Origin: a virus
Reading direction: 5' to 3' (one strand)
DNA: 64,000 nt
Virus record (IMG/VR): IMGVR_UViG_3300032087_005129
Shown: positions 74-60,430 of the stretch, in pieces
How positions within the stretch are numbered: position 1 is the first letter of the stretch
Layout of the letters: each line of letters begins with the position of its first letter
Notes under the pieces: model-generated
The model's database searches: none
The model's input: only the letters and a program-made list of their open reading frames with translations
Told to the model about the DNA's origin: nothing
Program-made: the position numbers and the translations under genes

Positions 74-1594
74 ATGTCTCAAGATGAATTTCGGCAGTGG
101 GTGATTGACTATCGTAAAACTATGCTTGAGTCTTGGGATAGATACGGTTGCCCGCCTCGATCTGGTGCAGACGAAAAGAAAATTGTAAAGTCTTTCAACT
201 CATTGTCATCGCACCCTGTTCACAAGTTTGAATACACAGACAAACTTGGCTGTTCGTTCGGTAAAAAGAACGATGTTATTCTCAACACAGCGAGAGCAGG
301 CACAGAAGTTGATCAATTCTTTCCGACTATGATGAAAGCAAGAATCAACTACAACATCAAAAGCGATGGTCACTCTGTATATGACATGTTTAACGATGAT
401 AAGTTTCTTGAGAGAATGGTCAAGGGTAGTCAACGACATTTCAAACGAGATAGTTTCTATCACTACAGCCACACAATGAAACTTGGTGATCCATCAAACA
501 TTATTAGTGCAGATAGTGGTTTTGATTTCTGTGAGAAGTGTTGTCAAAACAAAAAACTCATGGAGTCAATGGGTTACGATTATTGGATTAGTGAAAAAGA
601 AGAGTCTGAAGGATTGTCTACAGGCTATTATCAAATCGATCAATCAAAGCAACTCTCTCTGAGTGCTGAACAAGTCAAAGTATTGTATGATCGAGGTTGC
701 TTTACAGAACGAAACATTTCTAATATTGATGTGAATGATTTGAAAGCCGATCACGTTTACATTCTTCGTTTATTCAAACTTGGTCACAAGGTGTTTCCGA
801 AAGCGTTTACTGCATTCAAGATTGGTTACATTCAAGTCGCAGTAAACTTTCCGCCTATGACTGCAAAGTATCTCTATGAAAGGTTCACGGAACATGTCAA
901 AGATCAAGAAACTATTCGAATTTATGATCCGTCATCGGGCTGGGGCGGTCGTATTCTTGGTGCTATGTCCGTACGGGATGATCGTCGGATTCACTATATT
1001 GGCACAGATCCTAATCCAGAAAATCAGATCCCGAAAGAAGGCATAAGTCGCTACGACTATCTTGCCAACTTCTTCAACGAAAATACATATCGTGGCAATG
1101 GTGTATTCAGTCACTCGAATACATTTGAGACATTCGATGAGTGTGCCGAAGACATCAAGAACAATCCAGACTTTCAGAAGCACAAGGGTAAACTTGATCT
1201 TGTATTCACATCGCCCCCATACTTCAACCGTGAGGGCTACGCAGATGACGCTAAACAGTCGTATCAGCGTTATCCAGGCTATCAAGGGTGGGTAGACGGG
1301 TTCTTGCGACCAACGCTTGAGACGGCGGTTGAGTATCTGCGTCCGCAAAGATATCTTCTCTGGAACATTGCTGACATTCTGATGGGTAAAGAGTACATGC
1401 CACTCGAAGAAGACTCGAAGAAGATTCTTGAATCTCTCGGTATGGAGTACAAAGGTTTTCTTAAGATGGCAATGGCATCAATGCCTGGTCAAAACCGATT
1501 AGATGAAAACGGTATTCCCAAGTGCAAGAATTATTGTCAAGTGAAGGGGCAGTACCTTAAGTACGAGCCAGTGTTTGTTTTCTGGAAACCTTAA
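74..1594 (+). CDS. DNA methyltransferase (amino-methyltransferase, N4-C or N6-A); 5' end probably lies outside the window
   Basis: SAM-binding motif YDPSSGWGGR and catalytic motif FTSPPYF; the frame is open from base 2. Confidence 0.85.
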   Translation: MSQDEFRQWVIDYRKTMLESWDRYGCPPRSGADEKKIVKSFNSLSSHPVHKFEYTDKLGCSFGKKNDVILNTARAGTEVDQFFPTMMKARINYNIKSDGHSVYDMFNDDKFLERMVKGSQRHFKRDSFYHYSHTMKLGDPSNIISADSGFDFCEKCCQNKKLMESMGYDYWISEKEESEGLSTGYYQIDQSKQLSLSAEQVKVLYDRGCFTERNISNIDVNDLKADHVYILRLFKLGHKVFPKAFTAFKIGYIQVAVNFPPMTAKYLYERFTEHVKDQETIRIYDPSSGWGGRILGAMSVRDDRRIHYIGTDPNPENQIPKEGISRYDYLANFFNENTYRGNGVFSHSNTFETFDECAEDIKNNPDFQKHKGKLDLVFTSPPYFNREGYADDAKQSYQRYPGYQGWVDGFLRPTLETAVEYLRPQRYLLWNIADILMGKEYMPLEEDSKKILESLGMEYKGFLKMAMASMPGQNRLDENGIPKCKNYCQVKGQYLKYEPVFVFWKP

Positions 1595-2634
1595 CCCAAC
1601 TCATCTGGATCGTAAGGGTACATATAGTCGCTCAGATCATCAGGTGGTGGATCTTCACCCAATAGATATCTGATTAGAACACCAAATGGACCGTCATCGT
1701 TTTCGAATTGTGGCGCTGTGAAGTTTTCATAGAAACGTGTAAGGTCACGATACAACTCATCTCGAACGTCGCTAGGCATATCTACATTGTCTAGCAATTC
1801 AACTAAATTGCTAAACATATCTGTAAGTTGTGTTTGATATCTAATCATGTTTTCAAGAACACCGAGAATGTCGCCTTGTCTTATAGACAAGATAAGACTT
1901 TCACGAATGCCTTCAATGGCCTGTGACATTTGGGAAGCATCGCCTGGTAAACCAGAGAGTATAGTTTGAATGTTAGAGATGTAACTTAAAATCTCATCGT
2001 AATTGTCTGGTCGAGGTTGAAGATTCATAAAGGAATCTAAAAAATCATCCAAAGCAGCATTGTTCATAATAAAACTATTCCACCTTTGATCGACATCAAA
2101 ACTTATTTCCCAATTTACTTTAAGATTAAGTTCGTCATAACGTACACCAATACCATATCTCAAAGCAAGATATTGTAATAGATTTTCTTCGCCCATATCA
2201 CTATATTGCAACAGTATTCTAAAAATACTTTGTCCATCACCCACATTTGCAGGAACATCAGGTGAAGCAAAATCTAAGGCTCTTATGAAACGAAGAAGAT
2301 CATTGAGTAGTTGACTGCTAACTGATGGGGAATCCATTTGATTTGGATTTAAAAATTTAGAAAACTGCCGAAAGAATGCCGTCTTGATCGCACTATCTGG
2401 TTGATCTTGTAGAATAGTAGCAATCAGTTCTACCATGTCACGAAAGAAATCGCTTTGTGGAATTGTTATGTCAATTTCTGGAATAGGAACAAACTGTCCG
2501 GCTGGGGTTCTTCCTATTTTTGATGGTTTTGCTCCAGGACGAGGACGAATTGGTGTTGGTTTATCACCAAAAAATCTTCTCGGTGGTGGTATCATCTTTT
2601 CTTGTAAAAGCAATAGTCTTTGTTTCCAATGCAT
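1591..2634 (-). CDS. Hypothetical protein, paralog of 2661..3653; putative head-packaged protein
   Basis: Leader MHWKQRLLLLQE, Pro/Arg-rich segment, helical body; shares FYENFTAPQF with its neighbour. Confidence 0.8.
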   Translation of the reverse strand: MHWKQRLLLLQEKMIPPPRRFFGDKPTPIRPRPGAKPSKIGRTPAGQFVPIPEIDITIPQSDFFRDMVELIATILQDQPDSAIKTAFFRQFSKFLNPNQMDSPSVSSQLLNDLLRFIRALDFASPDVPANVGDGQSIFRILLQYSDMGEENLLQYLALRYGIGVRYDELNLKVNWEISFDVDQRWNSFIMNNAALDDFLDSFMNLQPRPDNYDEILSYISNIQTILSGLPGDASQMSQAIEGIRESLILSIRQGDILGVLENMIRYQTQLTDMFSNLVELLDNVDMPSDVRDELYRDLTRFYENFTAPQFENDDGPFGVLIRYLLGEDPPPDDLSDYMYPYDPDELG

Positions 2635-2660
2635 AGTTATGTTCCTAATAAATGGTAATA

Positions 2661-3653
2661 TTATCTGATAATCTCAAACTCAGGTGGCAAGTCTTCACCC
2701 ATTAGATATCTAATTAGAGCACCGAATGGTGTGTCAGGATCCCCAAATTGTGGCGCCGTAAAGTTTTCATAGAAAGTTTCTAAATTACGAATTACTTCTT
2801 CTCTAACGTCGGCGGGTAAATCTACGGTGTCAAGTAGATCAACCATATCACTCATCATGTCTGTAAGTTGTGCGTGATACCTAATCATATTTTCTAGAAT
2901 GCCAACTACATTACCTGAGTTGATAGATTCAAGAAGTTGATCTCGTATCACTCTCATCGCATCTGCATTTGCTCCTTCACCTCCAAGACCAAGTAGTATG
3001 CTTTGAAGATTGCCAAGTTCGTCAAAAATGTATCTTGGTGGTTCTGGTTCAATGCCTGCAAGATCCTCCATAATTTTGTTAAATGGACCATTTTCTCCGA
3101 TCCAACCCATCCAATCTCTGTACACATCAAATGTTATTTGAGCATTAATTTTGATATCGAGTCTTTCGACGGTGAGTCCGTAACGCAAGGCAAGAAACTG
3201 TAGTAGTTCTGCTGGATTCATATCGCTGTAACTGGTTATTAATTCAAGAAGTCTTGTTGGGTTTCCTAGATTTACTTGGACATCTGTGCCAAAATCTCCT
3301 AAAAGTCTTAGGTGTCTTAGAAGGTCATTTAATTGTTGACTGGTAATTTCTGATGAAGAGCCAGTGGATTTTATAAATTCAGAAAACTGACGGAAGAACG
3401 CCGTTTTTATTGGACTGTTTGGTTGATCTCTATAAATTTGAGCAATCAAACGAATCATGTCCCCAAAGAAACCACTTTGAGGAATTGTAGTGTCAATATC
3501 TGGAATAGGAACAAACTGGCCAGTTGGGGTTCTTCCCAATTTTGGTGGTTTTGGTCGAGGACCAGGACGAATCGGTGTCGGTCTTCCACCAAAATTTCTT
3601 GGTGGTGGTATCGTTACTTCTTGTAGTAGTAGTAGTCTTTGTTTCCAATGCAT
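2661..3653 (-). CDS. Hypothetical protein, paralog of 1591..2634; putative head-packaged protein
   Basis: Identical 12-aa leader and colinear similarity to 1591..2634. Confidence 0.8.
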   Translation of the reverse strand: MHWKQRLLLLQEVTIPPPRNFGGRPTPIRPGPRPKPPKLGRTPTGQFVPIPDIDTTIPQSGFFGDMIRLIAQIYRDQPNSPIKTAFFRQFSEFIKSTGSSSEITSQQLNDLLRHLRLLGDFGTDVQVNLGNPTRLLELITSYSDMNPAELLQFLALRYGLTVERLDIKINAQITFDVYRDWMGWIGENGPFNKIMEDLAGIEPEPPRYIFDELGNLQSILLGLGGEGANADAMRVIRDQLLESINSGNVVGILENMIRYHAQLTDMMSDMVDLLDTVDLPADVREEVIRNLETFYENFTAPQFGDPDTPFGALIRYLMGEDLPPEFEIIR

Positions 3654-3655
3654 AG

Positions 3656-4027
3656 TTATAATCCTATTTGATCACCAATATTTATTCCAATTGTGTCAGC
3701 AACTCCTGAGTTTAGTTCTATTGCGTACATGATTGGTCTGTCAATTGGGTAGTCTGATTGTGTTCGATGATACATGGTTTGTTTGTCAACGACGTAGCCG
3801 TTTGAGTCAAGGCCAAGAATATCTAAATCCATTTTGCAGTTTTTCATCGTGAAACTTCTTGGTTGCTCTTCAGGAAAAACAAAAAGCATACCTCGATTCT
3901 TTGGCATACTTTTTCTAAACATTAAACCGAGTCTTTGCGACGTATCTGTAAGTGCAAGATCAAGAATAAAGTCATAATTCTTAATCTTCATCAAAACTTT
4001 TTTAAGTGGTTTAAAGTAAGATTTCAT
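3656..4027 (-). CDS. DUF192-family protein
   Basis: GLMFR...GMLFVF...F.MKN...LDI...YAIELNSG pattern. Confidence 0.85.
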   Translation of the reverse strand: MKSYFKPLKKVLMKIKNYDFILDLALTDTSQRLGLMFRKSMPKNRGMLFVFPEEQPRSFTMKNCKMDLDILGLDSNGYVVDKQTMYHRTQSDYPIDRPIMYAIELNSGVADTIGINIGDQIGL

Positions 4028-5091
4028 TATATGATATATTCTAAATTTCGAATAAACTTCAACAGTGTAATTATTTGCATTAGTGCATTTAGAGTAAATG
4101 AATCTAAATTACTATCTTTTGCGGGAATCAATTGACCAGTTTTAAGAGATATACGAAAATGCCCCCGGTCTTCTAGTATTTTAATCAAATCATCAACATC
4201 ACCTCCGCTGTTAACCCACTCTGCATATTGATTGCCCAGACCTGCTTCAAGAAAATTACTAAACATGTCATTTCTTCTGATGATTGTCAATGCTGAATCA
4301 TAATTGAAAAATCTTCGTCTTAAATTGTCAATATCTTCTTCGGTAAATCCTAAATCTAAAAGTTCTTGTGGATATCTATCTGAGCCAGTGAATGATCCTC
4401 GTAATAAGGCTTCTATTAACTCTTGCATTGTAAAATCACCTAGAATATCAAAGTTTATATCTCGTCTTATCGTTCCGAAGAAAAGGTTTAAAATAAAACC
4501 AAACTCACCATCTTCATTAATAAAACCTAAACCTCCTGAATACAATTCTAGGTAAGAAAGAAGTTGTGAAATAAAGTCTAGATTAGAAGAAGGATTAATC
4601 AAAAACAAAAGACGTTTTAATAGCAAATCAAACTCTGCTACCTGTGCCTTTGTCATATTCATACCAGCAACAGCATACGGAGATGGCTTGTCGGTTGCCG
4701 CCCTTGTTGGCTGTTTCACAATAAGTTCTATAAGTATCTCTGCAACTGCATCGGCTCTACCGGCATCAAAAGAAAGTGCTAATGCAATCGCCCGCAACTG
4801 CTCTGGTGTAAAAAGTTGTCCAAGACGAACAGTAATTTCTGGTTCACCTACACCAAGCGCCACTAGTCTTTCTAAAAATGTTGTACCATTAATACTGTAT
4901 CCAAGAATAACCCAATAAGGAGAATTTGAACCACCTGAACCATCTGGCATTGACATTCTTTCTGGAGGAGCAATGACTGGTGAATCAGTCGCAAATTTTT
5001 TAGTTGCTTGTGTTTTGGTTAAACCAATTCCAGTATCTTTTGCGATCTGATTTTTAATTATTTGCTCTAATAGTTTTTTTGCTTTTTTCAA
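4027..5091 (-). CDS. Hypothetical helical protein (TTG start uncertain)
   Basis: 354-aa ORF in the minus-strand operon; AGGA upstream of TTG. Confidence 0.7.
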   Translation of the reverse strand: MKKAKKLLEQIIKNQIAKDTGIGLTKTQATKKFATDSPVIAPPERMSMPDGSGGSNSPYWVILGYSINGTTFLERLVALGVGEPEITVRLGQLFTPEQLRAIALALSFDAGRADAVAEILIELIVKQPTRAATDKPSPYAVAGMNMTKAQVAEFDLLLKRLLFLINPSSNLDFISQLLSYLELYSGGLGFINEDGEFGFILNLFFGTIRRDINFDILGDFTMQELIEALLRGSFTGSDRYPQELLDLGFTEEDIDNLRRRFFNYDSALTIIRRNDMFSNFLEAGLGNQYAEWVNSGGDVDDLIKILEDRGHFRISLKTGQLIPAKDSNLDSFTLNALMQIITLLKFIRNLEYII

Positions 5092-5134
5092 AACACAAGT
5101 CCTATTTTTTTATTTTTTTGTATCTTAGTTATTA

Positions 5135-6223
5135 TCAAAATTCTCGAACTTTTTTGTAGTGTCTAAGATAAAACTTTAGAATTAGTGTTAGTTGTCCATT
5201 GATTGTTTCGGTAGGTCTTCTATCATTCACGAAAAATTCGGGCATTACGTTTGCCACGATTCTATCAATTTCTTCACTTGGAAGATCTAAAGATTCAAGA
5301 TACGTTTTAAGTTGGGTACTCACATGCTGTTCATATTGAGCAAATATGGCTTGAAGTTCTGCCATTTTTGCCATCAATGCAGTTAACTCAAAGTCTTCCC
5401 CATTAGCAAACCCAAGTTTAATTTCTTCAATCACTGTTCGAAGTTTTGTTAAAAGTTCTTGGTCTCCACCAAAAAATCTGTTAAGTCCTCCTGATCTCAC
5501 TATTTCTCTTAGTCTTCTGCGAGTCACATCAAAGGTTATGTACGGATTTATTTCTTGAATTGCCGCTACCATTGAATTCACAATGTCGAGTTCCCAATCC
5601 ATTAAACCAAAACTAGATCCACCATACAGTTTTGAGCCTTGAAGGCCAAACAATTCCAGTATATCTTCAAAAGAGTTGTCTTCTGAAAATATACCTCTAA
5701 GTCTGTTAATCCACTCACCTTGAGAGCCTCTTAACTCATCAAAAAGTGTTGAAACTGGCAAAAATCTACCTCTAGCAAGCATATCTGATGGGCTAAGCAT
5801 ACCTCTTTGAAACTTCAGTATTGTTTCAATTATTAGATACCAACTTGGAATTTGTCGTTGACCTGTTTTACTTGTAAAAAGGTCTAAAATTCTATTACCT
5901 AATTGTGTATTTCCAGCATACTTTTGAACCCATCTTTGAATATTTTTTGACCACTCTCTTGGTGGAAAAAAGGGACCGTCGCCTAAGATTTCGAGCAAAT
6001 CATCAAGAGCCCTTCTTGGTGGGGGAATCATTATTGCAGGAAGGTTTCCACCTGGAAGTGGCATAAGAAATTCCATTTCACCTGGCTCTCCCATACCTTT
6101 CATACCTTTACCCATGCGAGGTTTAGTCATACCGATCTCAGCAGGTCTTCCGCCTAGATCCATTCTTGCTTGCTCAAAGAGCCAGTTTGTGTATTGTTCT
6201 TTTGATACGTCTTCAGGTCTCAT
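5135..6223 (-). CDS. Hypothetical protein with IPPPRR motif
   Basis: 362-aa ORF; WLFEQ site, then a Gly/Met/Pro-rich segment and IPPPRR as in 1591..2634. Confidence 0.75.
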   Translation of the reverse strand: MRPEDVSKEQYTNWLFEQARMDLGGRPAEIGMTKPRMGKGMKGMGEPGEMEFLMPLPGGNLPAIMIPPPRRALDDLLEILGDGPFFPPREWSKNIQRWVQKYAGNTQLGNRILDLFTSKTGQRQIPSWYLIIETILKFQRGMLSPSDMLARGRFLPVSTLFDELRGSQGEWINRLRGIFSEDNSFEDILELFGLQGSKLYGGSSFGLMDWELDIVNSMVAAIQEINPYITFDVTRRRLREIVRSGGLNRFFGGDQELLTKLRTVIEEIKLGFANGEDFELTALMAKMAELQAIFAQYEQHVSTQLKTYLESLDLPSEEIDRIVANVMPEFFVNDRRPTETINGQLTLILKFYLRHYKKVREF

Positions 6224-6492
6224 TCTGATCTCTCCAATTGTCTACGGATCCATGCAATGTCTGTTTTAATTTCAGCCAGATCAGTAAGAATACGAGTCTG
6301 TGCTGTTTCTGTTTCTTGAATTCTTTGAACCGCGTCATTCAAATCTTCTTCAAGATTCGTGATGCGATTGTCATATGATGTGTTGAGTGAACTTGCTGTC
6401 CATACAAAACCAAGAATCGTAAGCACCCATGTTGTAGATAGGCCAATAATTAGTGGTTTGTGTTCTTGAATCTTAGTTTTTGCTGTGGGCAT
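6220..6492 (-). CDS. Small membrane-anchored coiled-coil protein (hemolysin XhlA/holin-like architecture)
   Basis: One TM helix followed by heptad repeats; AGGAGG RBS; late promoter upstream. Confidence 0.7.
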   Translation of the reverse strand: MPTAKTKIQEHKPLIIGLSTTWVLTILGFVWTASSLNTSYDNRITNLEEDLNDAVQRIQETETAQTRILTDLAEIKTDIAWIRRQLERSE

Positions 6493-6512
6493 CTAGTCGC
6501 CTCCTGTTCTTG

Positions 6513-6520
6513 TATTTATA
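6513..6520 (-). promoter_or_regulatory. T4-type late promoter TATAAATA
   Basis: Exact match just downstream of a terminator. Confidence 0.8.
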
Positions 6521-6552
6521 AAAAAAGAGCCGCCCGATTGGCGACTCTTTTC
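6521..6552 (-). terminator. Intrinsic terminator
   Basis: GAGCCGCC/GGCGACTC hairpin with an A-tract (U-tract on the minus strand). Confidence 0.7.
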
Positions 6553-6573
6553 ATGCTTAAATTTTTAGCGAAT

Positions 6574-7107
6574 TTACATAGGTGGTTGCATTCCGCCACC
6601 AAAACCGCCGCCTGGTCCTTGTTGAATGCCAGGTCTGTTTGCTTGACGCGAAGGACGAGCAAAGTTTGTTCCTGGTCTAATCGTTGAACGTTGAGGTGGT
6701 CGAGGTCCTGCTGGTTGACCACCAGGATTCGGCACTCCAAAGAATTGACCAAGAGCATCAAAGTCAAATTCAACTGTTGGGGGGTTTGTTCTTGCTACAA
6801 CAAGGAATGGTGAGCCATCCATGATATTAATGAAAACGCCACTTGGCAATTGAAGAAGACCAGGAGAACCCTGTCTTATTGTATAATTTATTAAGGCACC
6901 ATATGTGTTGTTTTCACCAAGAAGGCTCAGAATAAACGTATAGTCGTTGAAGTCGAGTGTTCCGTTTCCACCAATTGTTGTTGTTGTGCCACCAGGTGCA
7001 CCACCACCGAATTGTTCTGAAAGATGTGTTGTCTCTTCAAGACCGGCAGCGTATCCTTTTGCATACGCTTCATTAATTCTTTTTTGTAATCGATTATCTC
7101 TGCTCAT
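6574..7107 (-). CDS. Gly/Pro/Arg-rich hypothetical protein with EAY.KGY leader and a dockerin-like motif
   Basis: RINEAYAKGY leader; GNGTLDFNDYTFILSLLG; AATAAATA at 7132..7139 upstream. Confidence 0.75.
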   Translation of the reverse strand: MSRDNRLQKRINEAYAKGYAAGLEETTHLSEQFGGGAPGGTTTTIGGNGTLDFNDYTFILSLLGENNTYGALINYTIRQGSPGLLQLPSGVFINIMDGSPFLVVARTNPPTVEFDFDALGQFFGVPNPGGQPAGPRPPQRSTIRPGTNFARPSRQANRPGIQQGPGGGFGGGMQPPM

Positions 7108-7140
7108 TTTTAACTCCTAGGAAGATAAACTTATTTATTT

Positions 7141-7746
7141 TTACATGATTTTTGACACATGCTGATAGATTCGAGCAGAGCATTTTTCATGCGGTTTACA
7201 TCGAAATGTTTTAGGCATCATTTCTGGATCAATCAAAGTAGACCACCTTGCTTTTGGCCATCTTTTTTCTTGAAACGAAACCCAATGTGAGTACAAATAT
7301 GCATTTGCACGAACACGAAAGGTATTTATCTCATTCTGACACTGAAGAAGGCCATACTCTTGTAGCAATTTTTCTGTTCGAATTTCGCAGTCTCGTTCCA
7401 TTTCGATTACTTTTTTCATTGCATCAAAAGCAAGATCTTTATCATCATGTATACCATTCACCCATTCGAGAAATACCATACATGGACATCGACCGTCTTC
7501 TGTTTTTGCTGTGTATTTTGGCTCACCTTCAAGCCACTGACACATGTGGCAGTATTCATGTGCAAGTGTTTGCACCCACTTGCTTGATTTTTTTGCCACT
7601 ACGAGAGATGTCTCATCGAAATAGCCTGATGCTCTGCAACGCTCACCTGTATTTACTGCCTGGTGATTAGAAAGAACAAAGCGAATGCCGTGTTCTTTGC
7701 ATTCGCTTCGTACATAATCGATGAGTTTTTTCTCTTCTGAGAGCAT
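7141..7746 (-). CDS. Zincin-like HExxH metallopeptidase-domain protein
   Basis: LAHEYCHMCQW plus downstream E.DCE. Confidence 0.7.
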   Translation of the reverse strand: MLSEEKKLIDYVRSECKEHGIRFVLSNHQAVNTGERCRASGYFDETSLVVAKKSSKWVQTLAHEYCHMCQWLEGEPKYTAKTEDGRCPCMVFLEWVNGIHDDKDLAFDAMKKVIEMERDCEIRTEKLLQEYGLLQCQNEINTFRVRANAYLYSHWVSFQEKRWPKARWSTLIDPEMMPKTFRCKPHEKCSARIYQHVSKIM

Positions 7747-7754
7747 ATAATTAT

Positions 7755-8861: not shown

Positions 8862-9187
8862 CGCATTTTCTTTTTGAGATTTGTGAACTTTCTTTTGACT
8901 GATGGTGTCTTCATTTCTTTTTCAACGGCTGTGATTGCATCGACGAACAAACGAACGATACCATCGTCGCTCATTTCTCGTGCAAGGTAATCTGTATCAC
9001 CTTTCTTTTCAAGCCGATCAGCAAGATTGCGAAGTCTTTTTGCGACCTGACTGTTCAATGTTTTGAGTGTCATTGAACCATATCCACGAACAAGAATGTT
9101 AGGATTGTCTACGTCACCGATGTTGCTGAAGTCTATTCTTCCTGCTGGTTGACTTTGTTCGTAGAGGTAGTTGTAGAAGTCTTTCAT
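8858..9187 (-). CDS. Hypothetical protein with capsid-targeting-like leader
   Basis: MKDFYNYLYE resembles T4 IPII/IPIII MKTYQEFIAE. Confidence 0.75.
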   Translation of the reverse strand: MKDFYNYLYEQSQPAGRIDFSNIGDVDNPNILVRGYGSMTLKTLNSQVAKRLRNLADRLEKKGDTDYLAREMSDDGIVRLFVDAITAVEKEMKTPSVKRKFTNLKKKMR

Positions 9188-9504
9188 TTGTTCTTTTCTT
9201 TCGTTATCTTTTTCATCTTTTCAATGTACTTTCGATACACAGCGGCTTCTTCTTTCTTGCCCATCACCTTTGCTCTTTGTTCCATGGCGATTGCTGCTTG
9301 AATTTTATGAGCATGTGTTCGATTTGATGACTCAATTTTTTTGACTGATGCTTCGGCGGTTTTTACATCTTTAAACCCAAGACCGTGAATTGTTCCTTTT
9401 GGATTTTCGTCAGTGTAAAGATCGCTGTGAGTATCAGGGTCTTGATTCTTACGAGTCTTGGGTATACGCTTGCCTTCATCAAAATATTCTAGAAATGATT
9501 TCAT
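9184..9504 (-). CDS. Conserved phage hypothetical protein with capsid-targeting-like leader
   Basis: MKSFLEYFDE; SDLYTDENPKGTIHGLGFKD module. Confidence 0.75.
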   Translation of the reverse strand: MKSFLEYFDEGKRIPKTRKNQDPDTHSDLYTDENPKGTIHGLGFKDVKTAEASVKKIESSNRTHAHKIQAAIAMEQRAKVMGKKEEAAVYRKYIEKMKKITKEKNK

Positions 9505-9514
9505 GCGTGTGTCT

Positions 9515-12237: not shown

Positions 12238-12252
12238 CAAACGCCAAAATCG

Positions 12253-51029: not shown

Positions 51030-51032
51030 ATA
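51025..51032 (+). promoter_or_regulatory. Late promoter TATAAATA
   Basis: Exact match. Confidence 0.75.
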
Positions 51033-51046
51033 AAAGCATCGAGGTT

Positions 51047-52432: not shown

Positions 52433-52440
52433 GGAAACAC

Positions 52441-53904
52441 ATGAAAACGTATAAAGACATACTCAAAGAACAAAAAAATAAACTTGGTAGTGCGCCAACC
52501 ATCAGCACAGGTGGCTTTAGATCGCAGAATCAATTTACGAGTGCCTCTGGTAAAACTCTAACAGGTCTTGATAACCAACTTGCATTGAGTGGCAACCTTG
52601 GTACATCTTATGGTCAAGGCGTTCTTACACCAACAGCATTCACTGATATTGGCCTTGCTAATCAGAAAACATTTATAAACACAAATAAGCCTGGAACAAA
52701 AAAAGGTGGAGTAGACGTTGATCTTGGTGGTGGAAAAGGTGTGCGAGGAGATACAGACACTCGCGGAAAAGATAACACAGACAACAACGGCAACTCCCCA
52801 ATCTATGGTGAACCCTTAACATCAGTTCAAACAGGTGATGGTGGCCAAGTTTATTTCTATGAAAATGGAATGATTGGTTATGATTTTGATGGTGACGGCA
52901 CTGTTGATTTTTGGGATCCGAGATTCTTTGGCAAAGACTTTACAGGTGAGTTCAACTATGACATGCTTCTTGAGATTTTGTCATACTACTCAAGAATAGC
53001 AAGTGGTGGTGGTGGCGAAACTGAAACGCCTCCTGGTCCTCAGCCTCCTATTGGTACAACACCTGATCCTCAGCCTCCTATCGGCACAACCCCTGATCAA
53101 CCAATTTTAGATACAGAAGTGGAAACAGAAGTAGAAGATGAACCAGATCAAGAAACTGAGGAAGATATAGATCGTGCAGGTCAATTCTATGATCCTATTT
53201 CGAATACTATTGTGAACCTGAGTTATAACCCATCACAAATCAAAGCATACTACAAAGAACTTTACGCCTTTGATGGTAACGGTGATGGTATTCCTGATTG
53301 GCTTGTTGACGGTTACAAAGCACAGGTTGAAGGACTTGGTGATTTTGCTTTGCTTTTTGGACTGTTGCCAGATCTGGTGTATGACGATGCAGGTAATTTA
53401 ACACCAGAATCGTTGCAATCAATTTCTTATCTTCTCATGTTCTATCAAAGCGAATTGATGCCTGGTTATAACTCGGTGTTTGGTGAAGGTTCAACCTTCT
53501 TTAATTACTTCTTCGGGCCAGGAGGCATCTACGAGGGAAGATATGAAGAATTCTTTGGTCAACGTGATGATGAAGGTGATGTTTTACCTGATGATTATTA
53601 CGCAGAAACATTTGCAGATAGTGAATTTATTGATAATTTCTTTGCCGATCCTCTATGGGAAAATCTAGTTGGTGACCTATTCCAAGTAGGCTATACAGTT
53701 GATGATTTAGGTAACTACATCGTTCAGTTTGAATATACAATACAGTATCCCGATGACATAAGTGGACAACCAGGCCCTACTCGAACATTCACTAATCTAT
53801 ACGGTATCGACTACGCACCGCAAGACGGAATTATTGACGAGTTATTCTTCGAAAATACAGGTCAAGGTGGCCAAGGCGGCGACATCGGGACTCAACCAGG
53901 CTAA
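52441..53904 (+). CDS. Acidic Gly/Pro-rich protein with capsid-targeting-like leader and DxDGDG loops
   Basis: MKTYKDILKE; DFDGDGTVD; DGNGDGIPD; PQPPIGTTPD repeat. Confidence 0.8.
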   Translation: MKTYKDILKEQKNKLGSAPTISTGGFRSQNQFTSASGKTLTGLDNQLALSGNLGTSYGQGVLTPTAFTDIGLANQKTFINTNKPGTKKGGVDVDLGGGKGVRGDTDTRGKDNTDNNGNSPIYGEPLTSVQTGDGGQVYFYENGMIGYDFDGDGTVDFWDPRFFGKDFTGEFNYDMLLEILSYYSRIASGGGGETETPPGPQPPIGTTPDPQPPIGTTPDQPILDTEVETEVEDEPDQETEEDIDRAGQFYDPISNTIVNLSYNPSQIKAYYKELYAFDGNGDGIPDWLVDGYKAQVEGLGDFALLFGLLPDLVYDDAGNLTPESLQSISYLLMFYQSELMPGYNSVFGEGSTFFNYFFGPGGIYEGRYEEFFGQRDDEGDVLPDDYYAETFADSEFIDNFFADPLWENLVGDLFQVGYTVDDLGNYIVQFEYTIQYPDDISGQPGPTRTFTNLYGIDYAPQDGIIDELFFENTGQGGQGGDIGTQPG

Positions 53905-53929
53905 TAAATAAAGGAAAAGAGAAACAAAA

Positions 53930-55081
53930 ATGAGTGACTACACAGAAGAAGAATTTTTAGACGAGCAAATGATGGGCTTTCAATCAGGTCTACTTGGTCG
54001 ACCTGAAGAGGAAGAAGACGAAGATGATGACTCTTTTTCTAGCACTATGCCGGGAAAAAGACTTCTCTCTCCTTTTGACCCAGAAAGAAAACCAGACTTA
54101 AAGATTCGCGGTAAGGACGATGTTCCGCCATCAGCGAAACCTAAGTTTGGCCCCCCAACAGGTAAGCAAATGCCTGGTATGCCAAAGATGCCTGGTATGC
54201 CTCAAGTGCCTGGTATGCCAAAGATGCCTCAGATGCCTGGTATGCCTCAGATGCCTAAGATGCCTCAGCAAGGTCTTGTGCCGAAAAAAGATTTGCAGTT
54301 TCCTGTAAAGCCACCTGCCCCTCAGGCTGGTAAACCTGCTGGTATGCCTGATCTTGGTGCGTTGATGCAACAGATGATGCAAAAGAAACAACCGCAAGCG
54401 CCTCAACAACAAGCACCAATGGGTGGTCTTGGTGCTATGATGGGCGGTATGATGGGTCAGCAAGCACCGCAGCAGGCGCCCCAACAAGCACCCCAACAGC
54501 AGCAACAAGATCAGTTTGCTACAATTAAGAAGCCTGGTGATCCTGATCCAGAATTTGTTGGTGGTGACATTGATCAAATGGCAAACCCTGTTAGAGACTA
54601 TGATGCAAAACAAGGTCTTCCTCAATATGGTCAACAAAGTCAGAAGCCTTACAATCAACAAGAGATTCTTGATAAACTTGCCTTTGGTGGTCAATACGCA
54701 AAAGACGAAAATCTAGACTTCAAGCCAATGGGTGCTACGTTCAAAGTTTATGCGAATTCACCTCAGCAAAGAGATCAGATCGAGAAGTATGCTTTGAGAT
54801 TTGGTGAAACAGGATCAAAACCAAATATTTCTCTTGGTGGTATTGAAAACAAAGGTGGAAGAGAAACGTTTGTTATTGTAATCAATAGTAACAACGACTC
54901 TGTGTATCGTGAGTTAAATCGATACCTTCAGTCAATTGGTGTTGAGTTTGAAGAACAACAACTTCTTCCTGGTCAACTTGAAGATCAAGAAACTAAGCAG
55001 AAGAAAGAAATGGAAAAACAACAAGGCGGCGGCGGAGGCGGCGGTCTTGGTGCATTAGGAGCCCTCTTGGGGGGTATGTAA
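53930..55081 (+). CDS. Low-complexity Met/Pro/Gln/Gly protein
   Basis: MPG/MPK/MPQ tripeptide repeats; AATAAATA at 53903..53910. Confidence 0.8.
   Translation: MSDYTEEEFLDEQMMGFQSGLLGRPEEEEDEDDDSFSSTMPGKRLLSPFDPERKPDLKIRGKDDVPPSAKPKFGPPTGKQMPGMPKMPGMPQVPGMPKMPQMPGMPQMPKMPQQGLVPKKDLQFPVKPPAPQAGKPAGMPDLGALMQQMMQKKQPQAPQQQAPMGGLGAMMGGMMGQQAPQQAPQQAPQQQQQDQFATIKKPGDPDPEFVGGDIDQMANPVRDYDAKQGLPQYGQQSQKPYNQQEILDKLAFGGQYAKDENLDFKPMGATFKVYANSPQQRDQIEKYALRFGETGSKPNISLGGIENKGGRETFVIVINSNNDSVYRELNRYLQSIGVEFEEQQLLPGQLEDQETKQKKEMEKQQGGGGGGGLGALGALLGGM
54169..54270 (+). repeat. 9-bp tandem repeats coding MP(G/K/Q)
   Basis: ATGCCTGGT/ATGCCAAAG/ATGCCTCAG units. Confidence 0.85.
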
Positions 55082-55229: not shown

Positions 55230-56681
55230 ATGAAAGTTATTGTTTTTTCTAGTCGTGCAAGTAATACCGAAGAGGGTGAAAACTCTGGTCTTATGCGAAC
55301 TGCCAAGAGAATTAAAGAGGAATCTAAAAAACTTGGTGTTTCGTGTCATGTTTTTTTCAAAGAAGATTTAAATTACGAAAAGAAAAACAATAAACATTTT
55401 GTAAAGAGTGAAGATAAAGCGGAAGAGATTTCTGTTGATGACACCATCATCATTGTGAGAGGTGCAACAAAAGAAGACTCATCCGCTTTGTCTATTTTAT
55501 CCTCTCTTGAAGACGAAGGGTTTTTCATTGTTAATACAAAAGAGTGTGTTGAAATATGCGAAGACAAATATCGAACACATCTTCGTCTTAGTCAAGAAAA
55601 AATACCATCACCAAAAACAGTTGCTTTACCAAAACCAATTTTTGATGAAGAAGATGATCCTAGAAAAATAGAGAATATTAAAAACTACACTGTTCAGGTA
55701 GGGTCAAAGTATCCAATGATTCTAAAAACATCAACAGGATCAAAAGGCAGTGGTGTGATGATTATTGAATCAGAAAACTCTCTTGTTTCTGTTGTTCAAA
55801 CAATACACAAAGTTGATCGAGAAGCAAATCTTTTGCTTCAAGAGTACATACCATACAAAAAAGATATGCGTGTGATTGTTCTTGGCAACGAAGTAGTCGC
55901 TGCAATGGAAAGAAAAAGTGTTGATGGCGACTTCAGAAGCAATTATTCACTCGGCGGCAAAGCAAAGTCTGTCAACATAGATGATAATCAAAAACAACTT
56001 GCCATTGATGCCGCATCGGCAGTTGAGGGTGTGTTCGTTGGTGTTGACATTCTTGAGTCTAATGGCAGAAATTATGTCATTGAAGTAAACGCTTCGCCTG
56101 GAACTGAGGGTATTGAAACTGCGACTAAAAAGAACGTGACAAAAGAGTTTCTTGAGTATTGTCTAAACAAGACAAACTGGACAAACAAAGAGACAAACAA
56201 TGTAAAACTTGACGGTGAAAGCATAGACGAAATGTATGAAAACTATGTGTATGACACGAGTTCGATGTATTTTAATAAAAGTCTGTTGGTTCGAAAAGTA
56301 GAAAATTCTAGAGTAAACGAGTCTAAGAAAATAGATCGTCTTTTAAAACTCGAAAAGCAAGGTGATTTGTTTGCTCGTTTGTGCATCGAAGAAGCGAAAA
56401 ATCGTCAAAGAAAAGAAGAATCTGAGAAGTGGCTTAATAAAACGTTTGAAGAAAACTTTAAGCAGAAAGAAAATACTTCCAAAGTAAATACCAAACGGGA
56501 TAAATACATACAAGCCTTTGGTGAGAATTGGCAAAAAGTTTATTATGCTGAAGCATGGAGAAAGTATAACGAAGAGTATGATGAAAGCGATTTAGAAGGC
56601 ACTGATGCTTCTGTGATCAAAAGGAAATCACAAACACCTGGTGAACCTTTGTATGATTTGGTCAGAAAAAGAAATGTATAA
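55230..56681 (+). CDS. RimK-family ATP-grasp ligase with C-terminal extension
   Basis: DKY, P.ILK...GSKG.GV, LLQEYI, DFRSNYSLGG, GVDIL, IEVNASPG. Confidence 0.85.
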   Translation: MKVIVFSSRASNTEEGENSGLMRTAKRIKEESKKLGVSCHVFFKEDLNYEKKNNKHFVKSEDKAEEISVDDTIIIVRGATKEDSSALSILSSLEDEGFFIVNTKECVEICEDKYRTHLRLSQEKIPSPKTVALPKPIFDEEDDPRKIENIKNYTVQVGSKYPMILKTSTGSKGSGVMIIESENSLVSVVQTIHKVDREANLLLQEYIPYKKDMRVIVLGNEVVAAMERKSVDGDFRSNYSLGGKAKSVNIDDNQKQLAIDAASAVEGVFVGVDILESNGRNYVIEVNASPGTEGIETATKKNVTKEFLEYCLNKTNWTNKETNNVKLDGESIDEMYENYVYDTSSMYFNKSLLVRKVENSRVNESKKIDRLLKLEKQGDLFARLCIEEAKNRQRKEESEKWLNKTFEENFKQKENTSKVNTKRDKYIQAFGENWQKVYYAEAWRKYNEEYDESDLEGTDASVIKRKSQTPGEPLYDLVRKRNV

Positions 56682-58969: not shown

Positions 58970-59703
58970 GCGTTGTAGATACTGTTGTCGCATACAAGTT
59001 TATCAAGATTCTCTCCACACCGTGGAAGAAGACTGACGCTTATAAACTTGGCATCATTGATGATAAAGGCACAGTTCTCAAGAAACGAAAAGATCTAAAA
59101 ACATCAAACGAGAAGAAGGCTTACACAATCTTTCATACTCTTTGTTGGAACATCAAGCGACTACTCGACAAATTGCCTCCAACAAGAACAAGACTCGGCT
59201 CTTTTGCAACTGCTTTATGGATGCTAAAAGAGTATCTTGATCTTTCAAGGCTTGATAGTCAAAAACTTTTTGAAACATCAGAAGATTACTTTAAAGCCAA
59301 GGGGCTTGACATTCGCATGAATCTTCTTGAAGGTGCCAAAAAGAAAAGAAAATTAAACAAAGGTAAATACGTTCTCAAAGCAGATGTCACTGAGGATGTG
59401 TTTATTGGCGATACAGTGATACTTGAAAACGATTCTTTTCCGATTGCTGAGATTATGAATGTGCCATTGTATCAAATGATACATGAGAAAACAAAAAGAA
59501 AAGTCGTTGTGAGTGGTTATGAAATCAAGGAGCAGCCAGCCAACAACATTGGTGGTGGCAATATTGCTGGTGCAGGCTATGGTGGACCAGACGATAAGGT
59601 TGCAGTTGATATGTCTGGTATTACTGGAAGTATAAATAGAAGAGAACGTAATCGCCAGTCTATGCAAAGTTTGACTGGTATAAACTATCCAAGAGGATCA
59701 TAA
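58966..59703 (+). CDS. Conserved T4-like hypothetical protein
   Basis: YKFIKIL.TPW..TDAYKLGIID. Confidence 0.75.
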   Translation: MSVVDTVVAYKFIKILSTPWKKTDAYKLGIIDDKGTVLKKRKDLKTSNEKKAYTIFHTLCWNIKRLLDKLPPTRTRLGSFATALWMLKEYLDLSRLDSQKLFETSEDYFKAKGLDIRMNLLEGAKKKRKLNKGKYVLKADVTEDVFIGDTVILENDSFPIAEIMNVPLYQMIHEKTKRKVVVSGYEIKEQPANNIGGGNIAGAGYGGPDDKVAVDMSGITGSINRRERNRQSMQSLTGINYPRGS

Positions 59704-59704
59704 A

Positions 59705-60430
59705 ATGGGATTAAACTACAGACAACAAAGAAGTCTAGCCGAATCAGTTGATCATGTTCTAGACCCACAAACAAACGAAGTTCACCTAAGTGAAGATTAT
59801 AGAAACATTCGTGAAAAAGCATCTACTCGTGTTGGTTACCAAATCAAGGCCGCTGGTGATGCTAACATGGATCTTCCAGATGATGTTATTGATTATGTTA
59901 TTAACAACATCGCAATGACGGAAGAGGTTATGTCTATTGAGGAAGCGTATGATACAGCGATGAGACAATTGACCGAAAAACCGTTTGGTTTTGGTAGTAG
60001 ACCTAGCCGAGGAGGAGGTTTTGGTATTCCTCCTGGTGGTGGTGGTCAAGAAGTAGATCCTGACGTTTCTCCCGGTGCTGCTGAACCAAAAAAGAAAAAA
60101 TACAAACAAGATCCTCAATTTATTAGTGATCTTAAAAAATTGATTAAAAAAGGTTGGAAAAAAATTAGAGATATCGGTGAGGATATCATAGACTTTATCC
60201 TAAAAACAGGAAAAAGTATTGATGATTGGCTAAACGAAAACATTATTGATCCTATTCTTTCTGTGTTCTTTGAAGATTTGCCTGCTGATCCTGAAAAGCA
60301 AAGAGTCATGCGAACAGTTCTGAAAATTGCTTTGTCTTATCTCATAGGCAAATGGATTCGAGGCGGAGGCGGCGGCGGCGGTACACCGACACCACCCCCA
60401 CCGATCAATCCACCTTTCGGAGGCGGATAA
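59705..60430 (+). CDS. Hypothetical late protein with Gly/Pro-rich segments
   Basis: GAGGA RBS; SLAE, HLSE and QLTE sites. Confidence 0.7.
   Translation: MGLNYRQQRSLAESVDHVLDPQTNEVHLSEDYRNIREKASTRVGYQIKAAGDANMDLPDDVIDYVINNIAMTEEVMSIEEAYDTAMRQLTEKPFGFGSRPSRGGGFGIPPGGGGQEVDPDVSPGAAEPKKKKYKQDPQFISDLKKLIKKGWKKIRDIGEDIIDFILKTGKSIDDWLNENIIDPILSVFFEDLPADPEKQRVMRTVLKIALSYLIGKWIRGGGGGGGTPTPPPPINPPFGGG

Follow-up and report, generated by a model that had tools for sequence, protein, structure and literature searches.

Short N-terminal leaders of an uncultured T4-like aquatic phage: probably a strongly expanded form of T4 head targeting

Introduction

[quoted passage not shown] The T4 internal proteins IPI, IPII and IPIII carry a 10-residue N-terminal capsid targeting sequence (CTS) (Mullaney and Black 1996; PMC9026906, PMC3012670), in which, according to the mutational work as cited in PMC9026906, residues 4 and 7 determine targeting and residues 8 and 10 processing. 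Asp at position 10 stops processing and leaves targeting (PMC9026906). Citing Repoila et al. (1994), the same source names the locus of the T-even internal proteins as a hot spot of recombination. T4 Alt is a head-packaged ADP-ribosyltransferase (ART) trimmed at both ends by gp21, with a propeptide of six residues, I-T-E-6 (PMC5694885). In the giant phages phiKZ, 201phi2-1 and SPN3US, a gp21-related protease processes numerous head proteins by cutting after Glu (PMC5694885, PMC7411985, PMC10052503), with doubled sites, extra sites within propeptides and identical N-terminal propeptides on diverged paralogs (PMC5694885).

The window analysed here is the whole 64-kb stretch of DNA from an uncultured T4-like aquatic phage. 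About 20 of its genes begin with short leaders. As far as can be read from sequence, these probably represent the head-targeting system of T4 in a variant form that has greatly expanded.

Distribution of the Leader Genes

All 20 leader N-termini listed in the initial annotation were found at the starts assigned to them. The leader at 35574 starts at an internal ATG of an ORF opening at 35544, and the leader at 28478 is preceded by two residues, M-N. Twelve leader genes lie in one island:

1591–14699: hypervariable leader-gene island; two divergent late units, leaders on 12 of 17 genes
1591–2634, minus strand: type-2 leader gene with an acidic cargo of 347 aa; L-Q-E closes the 12-residue leader, and a Pro/Arg-rich stretch follows
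2661–3653, minus strand: type-2 leader gene, 330 aa; ATAAATA at 3679–3685 heads the 2661/1591 unit
3656–4027: DUF192 (Pfam), conserved non-leader gene
6220–6492: membrane-helix protein, conserved non-leader gene
6574–7107, minus strand: type-3 variant; short N-terminal extension, then an I-N-E-A-Y-x-x-G-Y core; ATAAATA at 7132–7138
7141–7746: SprT-like metalloprotease (H-E-x-x-H; Pfam), conserved non-leader gene
7755–8861, minus strand: ART-like cargo, type-1 leader with Asp at 10; R113, S166-W167, E312-x-E314; helical insertion
8858–9187, minus strand: type-1 leader gene, 109 aa, basic (pI 9.6)
9184–9504, minus strand: type-1 leader and a 96-residue module widespread in aquatic T4-like phages
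9515–12199, minus strand: basic polyprotein, 894 aa, type-2 leader and eight double linkers; ATAAATA at 12230–12236
12345–12707, plus strand: type-2 leader gene, 120 aa, Lys-rich; opens the plus-strand leader operon
12724–13005, plus strand: type-3 leader gene, 93 aa
13015–13404, plus strand: type-3 leader gene, 129 aa, basic
13414–13764, plus strand: type-4 leader gene, 116 aa
13761–14699, plus strand: type-4 leader gene, 312 aa; I-[NK]-E-E-T-I-[TS]-E at residues 12 and 81

The island is flanked by conserved genes (74–1594 and 14995–17331). Its equivalent in the relative G009 (32007–41145) shares these flanks, and most of its cargo genes differ. The genes at 1591 and 2661 are tandem paralogs; homologs of the former with 76–91% overall identity have an invariant leader, and at 33% identity 8 of the 12 leader residues are retained, L-Q-E among them. 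The extended type-3 form of 6574 was also found in G006, G009 and other IMG/VR contigs. The repeated site in the 13761 protein suggests that it may be a small polyprotein.

Both the SprT-like metalloprotease and a RimK-like ATP-grasp ligase (55230–56681) are conserved beside leader genes in G009 and G006, as would be expected if the leaders were recognition sequences for a phage-encoded modifying or processing enzyme other than the prohead protease, with these two as candidates. This is very improbable, since C-termini are the target of RimK, and T4, like many of its relatives that are not known to encode SprT-like or RimK-like enzymes, has type-1 leaders; T4 likely lacks both.

The other leader genes lie outside the island:

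21821–22288, minus strand: type-2 leader, Cys/His-rich 155-aa protein
27810–28481, plus strand: type-2 variant (M-Y-W-K-Q); sites L-S-E and L-A-E, then an I-P-P-P motif
28478–28768, plus strand: type-1-like leader gene; small Cys module (C-W-x-G-Y ... V-P-N-C), N-E junction, second module
34099–34623, plus strand: type-1 leader gene adjoining the regA-like gene; 9-residue leader, second site L-S-E, Cys module, 130-aa domain
35574–35843, plus strand: type-1 leader gene, 89 aa, basic
43051–43575, minus strand: type-3 leader gene, 174 aa
43585–44412, minus strand: zeta-toxin-type P-loop kinase, type-1 leader; second site L-N-E at residues 15–17
52441–53904, plus strand: type-1 leader closest to that of T4; acidic 487-aa protein with D-x-D-G-D-G Ca-loop motifs

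Several of these leaders were also found in relatives. The 21821 ortholog in the G009 island (85%) shares its leader, and the 43051 ortholog in G006 retains 18 of 22 leader residues against 40% identity overall. In L001, the 35574 ortholog has two leader residues changed, with 4, 7, 8 and 10 retained, and 27810 also has an ortholog there. Similar leaders were found on other cargo: a second M-Y-W-K-Q gene of G006 bears a different one, the near-identical 34099 leader of G006 and G009 precedes a different Cys module, and the G006 gene at the position of 52441 combines the same leader type with a cargo unmatched by BLAST. The 34099 module was present in 33 of 80 metagenome loci.

Leader Classes, Chance Expectation and Match to T4

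Residues 2–12 of the 93 called proteins were compared by ungapped BLOSUM62 scoring. Eighteen N-terminal pairs scored at least 25, compared with a mean of 0.13 (maximum 3) in random internal 11-mers. The type-1 core, [FY]-x-x-[FYILH]-[LIFV]-x-E, started at residues 3–6 in six proteins, where 0.16 was expected (Poisson P ~2e-8), and occurred internally at 8 of ~20,000 positions. Only 3–4 pairs reached 25 in two complete T4-like genomes (160–170 kb, ~200 genes), whereas G009 had 32 among 75 genes; therefore, the expansion is clade-specific. All four leader types were present, with type 4 confined to two genes adjacent to each other and the 7755 leader ending in Asp instead of Glu. The cargo proved as unrelated as had been claimed: the sole full-length paralogs are 1591 and 2661, and similarity among type-3 proteins ends after 21–31 residues.

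The type-3 core was found in 21 copies over four contigs. All copies share E, A, G, Y and E, for which mixed synonymous codons are used, indicating selection on the peptide. Judged from G006, G009, G012 and the 80 metagenome loci, the leaders are kept at the protein level and not at the DNA level. These codons also argue against shared 5' ends that are mainly recombination handles or duplication remnants of cassette movement, encoding functionless peptides. Such an origin would fit the high cargo turnover between the window and G009 islands, the T-even hot spot known from the citation above, and the leaders of 12724 and 43051, which differ at one of their first 39 nt and share a ribosome-binding context. 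However, T4 and marine phages alike retain the type-1 pattern with no similarity at the DNA level, and type-2 leaders are invariant while the residues directly after them vary, making this explanation extremely improbable.

The resemblance to the T4 CTS was specific. Type-1 leaders have an aromatic residue at 4 and 7, an aliphatic residue at 8 and Glu at 10, the positions that matter in the 10-residue T4 tag, and the 52441 leader (MKTYKDILKE) has 6 of 10 residues in common with MKTYQEFIAE of T4. The T4 ipII and ipIII leaders were read directly. A strict DNA pattern of the CTS matched ipII, ipIII and gene 61.1 in T4 and gave three matches within the 64-kb window and four in 605 kb of other T4-like contigs (~1 per genome), with no real match in 615 kb of five non-T4 phages (phiKZ, T5, SPO1, P-SSP7 and HTVC010P). 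Gene 61.1, whose product is to our knowledge no known virion protein, counts against the head-targeting reading. In favour of that reading, basic proteins (pI 9–10) like the internal proteins of T4 make up 12 of the 20 cargos. T4 gp22, gp21 and gp24 have 9–10-residue N-termini ending in [LI]-x-E that resemble type-2 leaders.

The two systems have unrelated, mostly basic cargo, a T4-type phage and late-type promoters in common. In contrast to the 3–4 genes of T4, about 20 are present here, known from sequence alone and spread over replication and late regions. There are at least three further leader classes, one of 22 residues, as well as doubled sites and cargos that are also acidic and large.

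Module Boundaries in the 894-aa Polyprotein

Double linkers recur at regular spacing in the 894-aa protein encoded at 9515, each built as hydrophobic-x-E, [S/G/D], 1–4 residues, [LIV]-[DN]-E:

12143–12175, 11846–11872, 11594–11623 and 11363–11389, minus strand: linkers 1–4
10679–10705, 10451–10477, 10223–10249 and 9812–9832, minus strand: linkers 5–8

The strict linker pattern occurred seven times in this protein, compared with 0.9 expected in the whole shuffled proteome; the eighth linker, which opens with Q-D-E, as the strict pattern allows, was spotted by eye. In G009 the modules are encoded by separate or differently joined genes, with breaks exactly at the linkers. Module 3 is a gene of its own there with a type-3 leader, whose L-N-E aligns with the L-D-E of the linker, and a shorter G009 polyprotein joins the modules flanking module 3 exactly at its linker. 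In the relatives, modules swap between genes exactly at hydrophobic-x-Glu boundaries, each standing behind a leader or behind a polyprotein linker, and leaders and linkers serve as interchangeable module boundaries. Likewise, the 21821 module lies internally within metagenome polyproteins.

The 9184 module (94% identity to its G009 ortholog) was found alone behind a leader or within polyproteins, at no fewer than 498 metagenome loci. A hydrophobic-x-Glu directly precedes it in 59 of 67 distinct contexts, N-terminal or internal, against a background of 9.8%, and among 16 forms that stand alone, 11 begin with a CTS-like leader. As a point against head targeting, this Glu could be part of the domain and not a cut site. 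Similarly, other phages carry some leaders inside larger proteins: the leader-plus-Cys unit of 28478 is internal to 430–650-aa multi-module proteins in cyanophages and phage Melnitz. Cultured phages with the same modules include cyanophage S-RIM8 and the Methylophilales phage Melnitz. The second 28478 module stands alone in G009 with a type-1 leader, and the N-E of that leader lines up with the N-E inside the 28478 protein.

The upstream Glu that both units retain inside large proteins would also fit a leader that is no more than the opening helix of each small module, N-terminal or internal by fusion, with no role in sorting or cleavage. An AF2 helix at residues 2–9 of the 7755 protein points the same way, but the model places this leader apart from the fold, at very low pLDDT. 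Moreover, before the 9184 module only the hydrophobic-x-Glu is conserved while neighbouring residues vary freely, the same leader precedes cargos unrelated by BLAST, and most remote ART-like homologs align only from about residue 25–47 of the window protein, many still having short leader-like N-termini of their own. A purely structural first helix is quite improbable.

Enzyme-Like and Acidic Cargo

Two of the three enzyme types that the initial annotation placed among the cargo were recovered. The 7755 protein is ART-like by its R, S-W and E-x-E residues, invariant in the 40-sequence alignment A2 of its family (74 remote homologs), and by the best fold matches of its AF2 model (pLDDT 73.5, pTM 0.71): in VIA-align, Vis came first (Z 5.9), and R-S-E ARTs made up 14 of the best 27 matches. 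Like Alt, it is an R-S-E ART-like protein of a T4-like phage with a propeptide-like N-terminal leader, and many of its homologs begin with the five residues M-[RK]-[LI]-x-E, resembling the Alt propeptide. Unlike Alt, it has a helical insertion and a leader whose Asp10 would, by the T4 rule, permit targeting without cleavage. No similarity to Alt was detected by sequence, and tblastn against 50,697 phage records gave no match. The 43585 protein is a zeta-toxin-type P-loop kinase (Pfam PF06414, E 9.7e-7, 28.8 bits against a cut-off of 22.3), of which the G006 and G009 orthologs retain only the second site. No RNase-like cargo was identified.

The term effector system overreaches; most cargo is not recognisably enzymatic, being either a small basic module or an acidic protein that bears Ca-loop motifs of the dockerin/EF-hand-like kind. 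Several acidic, Gly/Asp-rich cargos with such loops and Pro-rich tails resemble external or structural proteins more than internal ones associated with DNA, which counts against head targeting. The type-3 core, E-A-Y-x-x-G-Y-x-x-G-[LF]-x-E, is found in the middle of small phage proteins of no relation as well and may be a general helix-pairing motif, a further point against. Both observations would fit uncleaved docking or oligomerisation helices that attach interchangeable proteins to the capsid surface, neck, fibres or each other instead of the prohead core: D-x-[DN]-G-D-G-x-[IV]-D repeat loops and Pro-rich tails are present in 52441 and four G006 paralogs, and the type-3 core is a small-x-x-x-small helix pattern. 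Docking helices are nevertheless unlikely, because the T4 targeting and processing positions are matched, the leader-end Glu is strictly conserved, internal linkers follow the identical boundary logic, and the genes in G012 and L257 are linked to the head operon, not the tail operon.

Head Operons of Relatives and Late Promoters

G012 has two type-3 genes between Portal_T4 and Peptidase_S77 and directly after Gp23, L257 has two leader genes downstream of gp23, and L254 and L261 have a module polyprotein between terminase genes. In more distant T4-like relatives, leader genes lie within the portal-protease-scaffold-capsid operon. The protease, scaffold and capsid genes of the window phage would lie outside the 64-kb window.

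Most leader genes had been placed downstream of TAAATA late promoters. This stands in the operon sense, with 17–19 of 20 in ATAAATA-headed units. Of the 21 ATAAATA copies, 16 are followed by a same-strand start no more than 100 nt downstream. The copy at 44431–44437 heads a two-gene minus-strand cassette (43585 and 43051) inside a plus-strand region, the copy at 51026–51032 heads the 52441 unit, with a further copy at 52185–52191, and none lies within 100 nt of 21821. Upstream of 12345 lie ATAAATA (12254–12260) and, nearer to the start, a sigma-70-like TTGACA-N16-TAGATT. Replication genes, for example the regA-like gene at 33695, are also in ATAAATA-headed units. Late-type motifs at the heads of leader units favour head targeting; the sigma-70-like promoter and the position of 28478, 34099 and 35574 within the replication module count against it. 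Late expression of the leader genes is consistent with these data, which have no discriminating power.

Conclusions

With somewhat better than even confidence, we regard the leaders as prohead-core propeptides cut after Glu, the linkers being cut likewise, the cargo exchanged as cassettes and the enzymes injected. The leader peptides would carry proteins into the assembling prohead core, where a gp21-type prohead protease would remove them after the Glu of the hydrophobic-x-Glu site. This site, frequently present as a pair with few residues between, separates the modules of the 894-aa polyprotein, so that one precursor would yield many small, mostly basic internal proteins. The leaders and their statistics, their conservation as protein, the equivalence of leader and linker, head-operon linkage in relatives and the nature of two cargos are established here; from these we infer scaffold-core binding, cleavage, retention in the head and injection.

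The giant-phage head proteins support this reading through their doubled sites and identical propeptides, although their sites have a small P3 residue ([S/A/G]-x-E), which is hydrophobic here and in T4, their genomes are of another type and the window leaders are much shorter. Like the T4 core proteins, the polyprotein would receive several hydrophobic-x-Glu cuts per precursor; unlike a degraded scaffold, it strings together different basic modules that look folded, joined by a double linker that recurs regularly. At the T-even locus, as far as its description is cited, variable small basic genes likewise keep only the leader and trade cargo among related phages, whereas here the exchange unit also shifts between stand-alone gene and polyprotein, in a 17-gene island.

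The view of a greatly expanded, modular head-packaged set is partly supported, by leader statistics, module boundaries and head-operon linkage, with effector as the part that goes too far. Cargo is traded between genomes as cassettes with hydrophobic-x-Glu sites at their borders. The ART-like protein, comparable to T4 Alt, and the zeta-type kinase would accompany the DNA and probably reach the host interior with it. As the same cut-site pattern lies between polyprotein modules, a large head-packaged protein set can probably be read from the sequence.

Phage Identity and Related Contigs

The window is part of the genome of a T4-superfamily phage. The 859-aa product of 37005-39584 is a gp43-type DNA polymerase (PHROG 262, 1078 bits) that is about 50% identical to the polymerases of cyanomyophages. 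A megablast search with 5 kb of the window found no DNA-level match in the phage collection. Two short IMG/VR contigs, with polymerases 98-99% identical to that of the window, were assigned to the same phage. Relatives were found by pattern scans of IMG/VR for the core of the type-3 leader, one of the four classes (types 1-4) of short N-terminal peptide carried by 20 window genes, and three contigs were useful.

IMG/VR contigs of relatives
G006: 27 kb; polymerase 74% identical to that of the window, syntenic
G009: 51 kb; same clade as the window
G012: 66 kb; more distant from the window

G009 contains about 14 type-3, 5 type-1 and 2-3 type-2 leader genes. Three other features of the window were recorded.

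14995-22300: block of about 50% G+C within a window of roughly 39% G+C, with good promoters of the sigma-70 type; it encodes a CobS-like AAA_5 ATPase (17554-18948) and its 778-aa partner
42000-42968 and 47711-48685 (+): two DUF6065 paralogs with the common start M-[GS]-K-C-P-F
50388-51029 (+): TonB C-terminal domain protein (Pfam E 2e-13), the gene overlapping the end of a 533-aa protein

Homologs of the 14995-22300 block are present in G009, and the block therefore belongs to the phage clade. The common start of the DUF6065 paralogs is a separate N-terminal family outside the leader system.

Statistics and Conservation of the Leaders

All 20 N-termini that the initial annotation had named as leaders were found at the starts of the genes concerned. 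Among the 93 called proteins, 18 pairs of N-termini (residues 2-12) reached a BLOSUM62 score of at least 25, compared with a mean of 0.13 and a maximum of 3 for random internal 11-mers. The type-1 core, [FY]-x-x-[FYILH]-[LIFV]-x-E, started at residue 3-6 in 6 window proteins, while its internal frequency (8 of about 20,000 positions) gave an N-terminal expectation of 0.16 (P about 2e-8). These two comparisons ruled out chance as the origin of the leaders. Whole-gene paralogy was also rejected, since only 1591 and 2661 aligned over their full length in an all-against-all BLASTP. The same search, together with comparison across G006 and G009, bore out the earlier statement that the cargo behind the leaders is unrelated; type-3 similarity between window genes ended after 21-31 residues. 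Two complete T4-like genomes contained 3-4 high-scoring N-terminal pairs per 200 genes, whereas the close relative G009 contained 32 per 75 genes, indicating that the leader expansion is a trait of the clade and not of T4-like phages generally.

The leader of 43051 kept 18 of 22 residues in its G006 counterpart, against 40% identity overall. The G006 gene at the position of 52441 had the identical leader type with cargo unmatched by BLAST, and the leader of 34099 was near-identical in G006 and G009 with a different Cys module behind it. Type-2 leaders were invariant among homologs 76-91% identical overall, with variable residues after the leader, and 8 of 12 residues were retained even at 33% identity. 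Over 21 type-3 copies, mixed synonymous codons encoded the residues that never varied (E, A, G, Y and E), so that it is the peptide, not the DNA, that is selected. Two type-3 leaders 30 kb apart, at 12724-12762 (+) and 43537-43575 (-), differed at 1 of 39 nucleotides and shared their ribosome-binding context, suggesting that a leader cassette was recently copied or underwent gene conversion.

No match was obtained in IMG/VR with an exact leader DNA pattern, among phages by tblastn with a 31-residue type-3 leader, or in metagenomes first scanned with the product of 52441. When the first 40 residues of the 43051 product served as query in a word-based protein search, orthologs alone came back; such a search cannot measure the spread of the leader. 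The type-3 core E-A-Y-x-x-G-Y-x-x-G-F-x-E was also seen about 40 residues into an unrelated phage protein family of about 75 aa with a C-terminal T-G-G-S-A (IMG/VR loci L105, L108, L113, L123, L126, L127 and others). This core resembles small-x-x-x-small helix-pairing repeats.

Comparison with the T4 Capsid Targeting Sequence

Mutagenesis of the T4 capsid targeting sequence (CTS) by Mullaney and Black assigned residues 4 and 7 to targeting and residues 8 and 10 to processing, and Asp at residue 10 stopped cleavage and left targeting intact (PMC9026906). In the T4 record, ipII and ipIII both start with MKTYQEFIAE, and gp24, gp22 and gp21 have N-termini of 9-10 residues that likewise end in [LI]-x-E. 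The equivalent of targeting position 4 was F or Y in all eight type-1 leaders, and position 7 was F or Y in six and I or L in two. At the processing positions, [LF]-x-E ended at leader residue 10 in 6/8; one of these leaders, that of the 28478 protein, is preceded by two extra residues, so that the site ends at protein residue 12. The exceptions were 34099, whose leader ends at residue 9, and 7755, which has Asp. The leader of 52441 had 6 of 10 residues in common with the T4 tag. In types 2-4, [LI]-x-E was present in all leaders and ended at residues 9-22. The propeptides of giant phages of the phiKZ type have a small P3 residue, [S/A/G]-x-E. The window leaders do not have this site; unlike the phiKZ type, P3 in the window was L, I, F or V at the leader ends and at 7 of 8 starts of the linkers between polyprotein modules.

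A strict DNA pattern encoding M-K-x-[FY]-x-x-h-[LIF]-x-E matched ipII, ipIII and the uncharacterised early gene 61.1 in T4. It had 3 matches in the 64-kb window and matched 4 genes in 605 kb of other T4-like contigs, and the only match in phiKZ, T5, SPO1, P-SSP7 and HTVC010P (615 kb) contained an in-frame stop. T4 gene 61.1 (L085:667-831, NC_000866) encodes 54 aa starting with MKTFKEFIKE, a near-copy of the CTS, and its product is not known to occur in virions. Either this protein has been overlooked as a packaged one, or it warns that the tag by itself is no proof of packaging.

Equivalence of Leaders and Polyprotein Linkers

The 894-aa protein encoded by 9515-12199 contains a regular double linker between its modules: hydrophobic-x-E, [S/G/D], 1-4 residues, then [LIV]-[DN]-E. 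The strict pattern occurred in 7 copies in this protein, compared with 0.9 in the whole shuffled proteome, and an eighth linker was recognised by eye (Q-D-E-S-I-N-E, residues 790-796). Module 3 of the 894-aa protein is a separate gene in G009 behind a type-3 leader, and the L-N-E of that leader aligned with the L-D-E of the window linker. A type-3-like segment is also found inside the G009 gene, ahead of the next module. A 415-aa polyprotein of G009 is without module 3, its neighbouring modules being joined precisely at the linker. In G009, a gene of its own with a type-1 leader encodes the second module of 28478, and the N-E of this leader aligned with the internal N-E. The 28478 unit of leader plus Cys module was found inside multi-module proteins of 430-650 aa of S-RIM8, RB11-B and Melnitz, and those of S-RIM8 and RB11-B are annotated as "structural protein".

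Module-chain proteins
L097:82-1857: cyanophage S-RIM8 (591 aa)
L096:973-2256: Synechococcus phage RB11-B
L098:523-2475: Melnitz (650 aa)

The chains of the cultured cyanophages and Melnitz consist of small modules that are single genes here (Cys modules, DUF5824, DUF6321-like). In the Melnitz protein, the modules are joined to a cytidylyltransferase-like domain that has a leader-like start.

The 96-residue module of gene 9184-9504 was present in at least 498 metagenome loci. A hydrophobic-x-Glu ended at most 5 residues from the module start in 59 of 67 distinct upstream contexts (88%), compared with 9.8% at other positions of the same ORFs. A T4-like leader started 11 of the 16 stand-alone forms of this module.

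Genomic Setting and Promoters

The leader-gene island at 1591-14699 has the same conserved flanks as the G009 island at 32007-41145. The two islands share few genes, namely the 9184 ortholog (94%), a SprT-like gene, a membrane protein and DUF192. Conserved flanks around few shared genes mark the island as a cargo locus with fast turnover.

In G012, the gene order is Portal_T4, gp67-like, type-3, Pro-rich gene, Peptidase_S77, T4_CASP scaffold, Gp23 and a second type-3. Two leader genes follow gp23 immediately at locus L257, and at L254 and L261 the genes for the small and large terminase flank a module polyprotein. Among loci of at least 8 kb with the 9184 module, 35 of 37 have other genes in common with the window or G012. 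Neither the Peptidase_S77 (gp21) protease nor the gp22 scaffold lies inside the 64-kb window, and no Peptidase_S77 was detected in G006, G009, G010 and G011, fragments that cover 6-24% of their genomes; the G006 and G009 fragments are without the head region.

The motif ATAAATA occurs in 21 copies in the window, 16 of which precede a same-strand start by no more than 100 nt. The earlier assignment of the leader genes to late promoters held in that 17-19 of the 20 belong to units headed by ATAAATA, but the motif also heads non-leader genes. It precedes replication genes as well, 12345 has a sigma-70-like promoter too, and 21821 has neither ATAAATA nor a sigma-70-like promoter within 100 nt; late expression is therefore consistent with the data and not discriminating. 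The 43585/43051 minus-strand cassette is headed by ATAAATA and embedded in a plus-strand region, an arrangement typical of T4 late genes. The sequence TATAAATA at 26071-26078 lies within the annotated 5' end of ORF 26030-27535 (+). Since the G009 homolog begins 18 codons further downstream, at a Met, 26084 is probably the true start, which would make the unit with 27810 and 28478 late. PHROGs gave nothing informative for the late operon 48799-55081.

Two enzyme genes were noted in these regions.

7141-7746 (-): SprT-like protein with H-E-x-x-H, no leader and its own ATAAATA motif; 51% conserved within the G009 leader-gene island
55230-56681 (+): RimK-type ATP-grasp ligase (Pfam, 153 bits) in the late region of leader gene 52441; 52% conserved in G006, there adjoining an extra type-2 gene

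The SprT-like protein could be a second processing enzyme.

Cargo Proteins

Twelve of the 20 cargos were basic (pI 9-10) and 5 clearly acidic, and 17 of the 20 leader proteins had no Pfam match. The initial annotation had listed an ADP-ribosyltransferase (ART), a P-loop kinase and an RNase-like domain among the cargo. The kinase was confirmed: residues 27-192 of the 43585-44412 product matched the zeta-toxin family PF06414 (28.8 bits, cut-off 22.3), and a G-x-x-G-S-G-K-G Walker A loop is visible in the sequence. No RNase-like domain was located among the leader proteins, leaving that claim unsupported.

The ART claim concerns the 7755-8861 product, which has 74 remote homologs. In an alignment of 40 sequences, R113, S166-W167 and E314 were invariant and E312 was at least 90% conserved. 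The AF2 model (pLDDT 73.5) placed the catalytic-type residues on strands 110-116, 164-168 and 314-318, so that Arg, Ser-x-Ser/Thr and Glu-x-Glu would stand in order on an ART fold. VIA-align, which is independent of Foldseek, ranked Vis first at a modest Z of 5.9 (rmsd 4.1 over 142 residues), followed by many ARTs at Z 4-5 (Tre1-type, XopAI, ExoS, ART2.2, C3, HopU1, iota-like, C2-I, Certhrax, VIP2 and SpvB). Foldseek, Pfam and PDB profile searches gave nothing significant; no useful match came from phmmer or Foldseek against PDB, from the protein atlas, or from tblastn against phages. With modest Z values and these searches silent, the protein is described as ART-like, not as a proven ART. Many of its homologs start with M-[RK]-[LI]-x-E, recalling T4 Alt, which is cut at I-T-E-6 (PMC5694885).

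The acidic leader-bearing proteins 52441-53904 (+) and G006 22963-26667 contain repeated D-x-[DN]-G-D-G-x-[IV]-D loops and Pro-rich C-terminal tails, and G006 has four tandem paralogs of this Ca-loop (dockerin/EF-hand-like) leader protein. Such loops fit internal proteins poorly and keep alive a reading of the leader as a docking tag.

Interpretation

The most economical reading we infer is that the leaders work like the T4 CTS and its cut site. It is preferred because it would explain the position-specific pattern and its restriction to T4-type phages, the peptide-level selection and the leader-linker equivalence, and the head-operon linkage and the Alt-like enzyme. More tentatively, aquatic T4-like phages, including cultured cyanophages and the Methylophilales phage Melnitz, might share a general head-filling route. 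Dozens of small exchangeable modules would be made either as single genes with a T4-type leader or in polyproteins of up to about 1000 residues, which the prohead protease would cut at hydrophobic-x-Glu linkers. The packaged and injected proteome would be predictable from sequence, and in this clade it would have grown to 20 or more precursors with several leader classes. Such a route may be so far undescribed. T4 internal proteins, the variable internal-protein locus of T-even phages and the propeptide families of giant phages are known kinds (PMC3012670, PMC9026906, PMC5694885). New are the scale, the several leader classes, and the evidence that one module pool takes two forms across aquatic T4-like phages, single genes with leaders and long polyproteins. 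The main text of a study of cyanophage virion proteomics makes no statement on leader or module proteins (PMC3037559).

If the head-filling reading is true, the genome sequence would be enough to list the protein cargo that abundant phages of oceans and lakes inject together with their DNA, and this cargo would include enzymes that modify host proteins. The T4 targeting tag is already in use to engineer T4 as a delivery vehicle, and it would be joined by many more natural leaders and cut sites. The large "hypothetical" multi-module proteins of cyanophages would be explained as precursors of internal head proteins.
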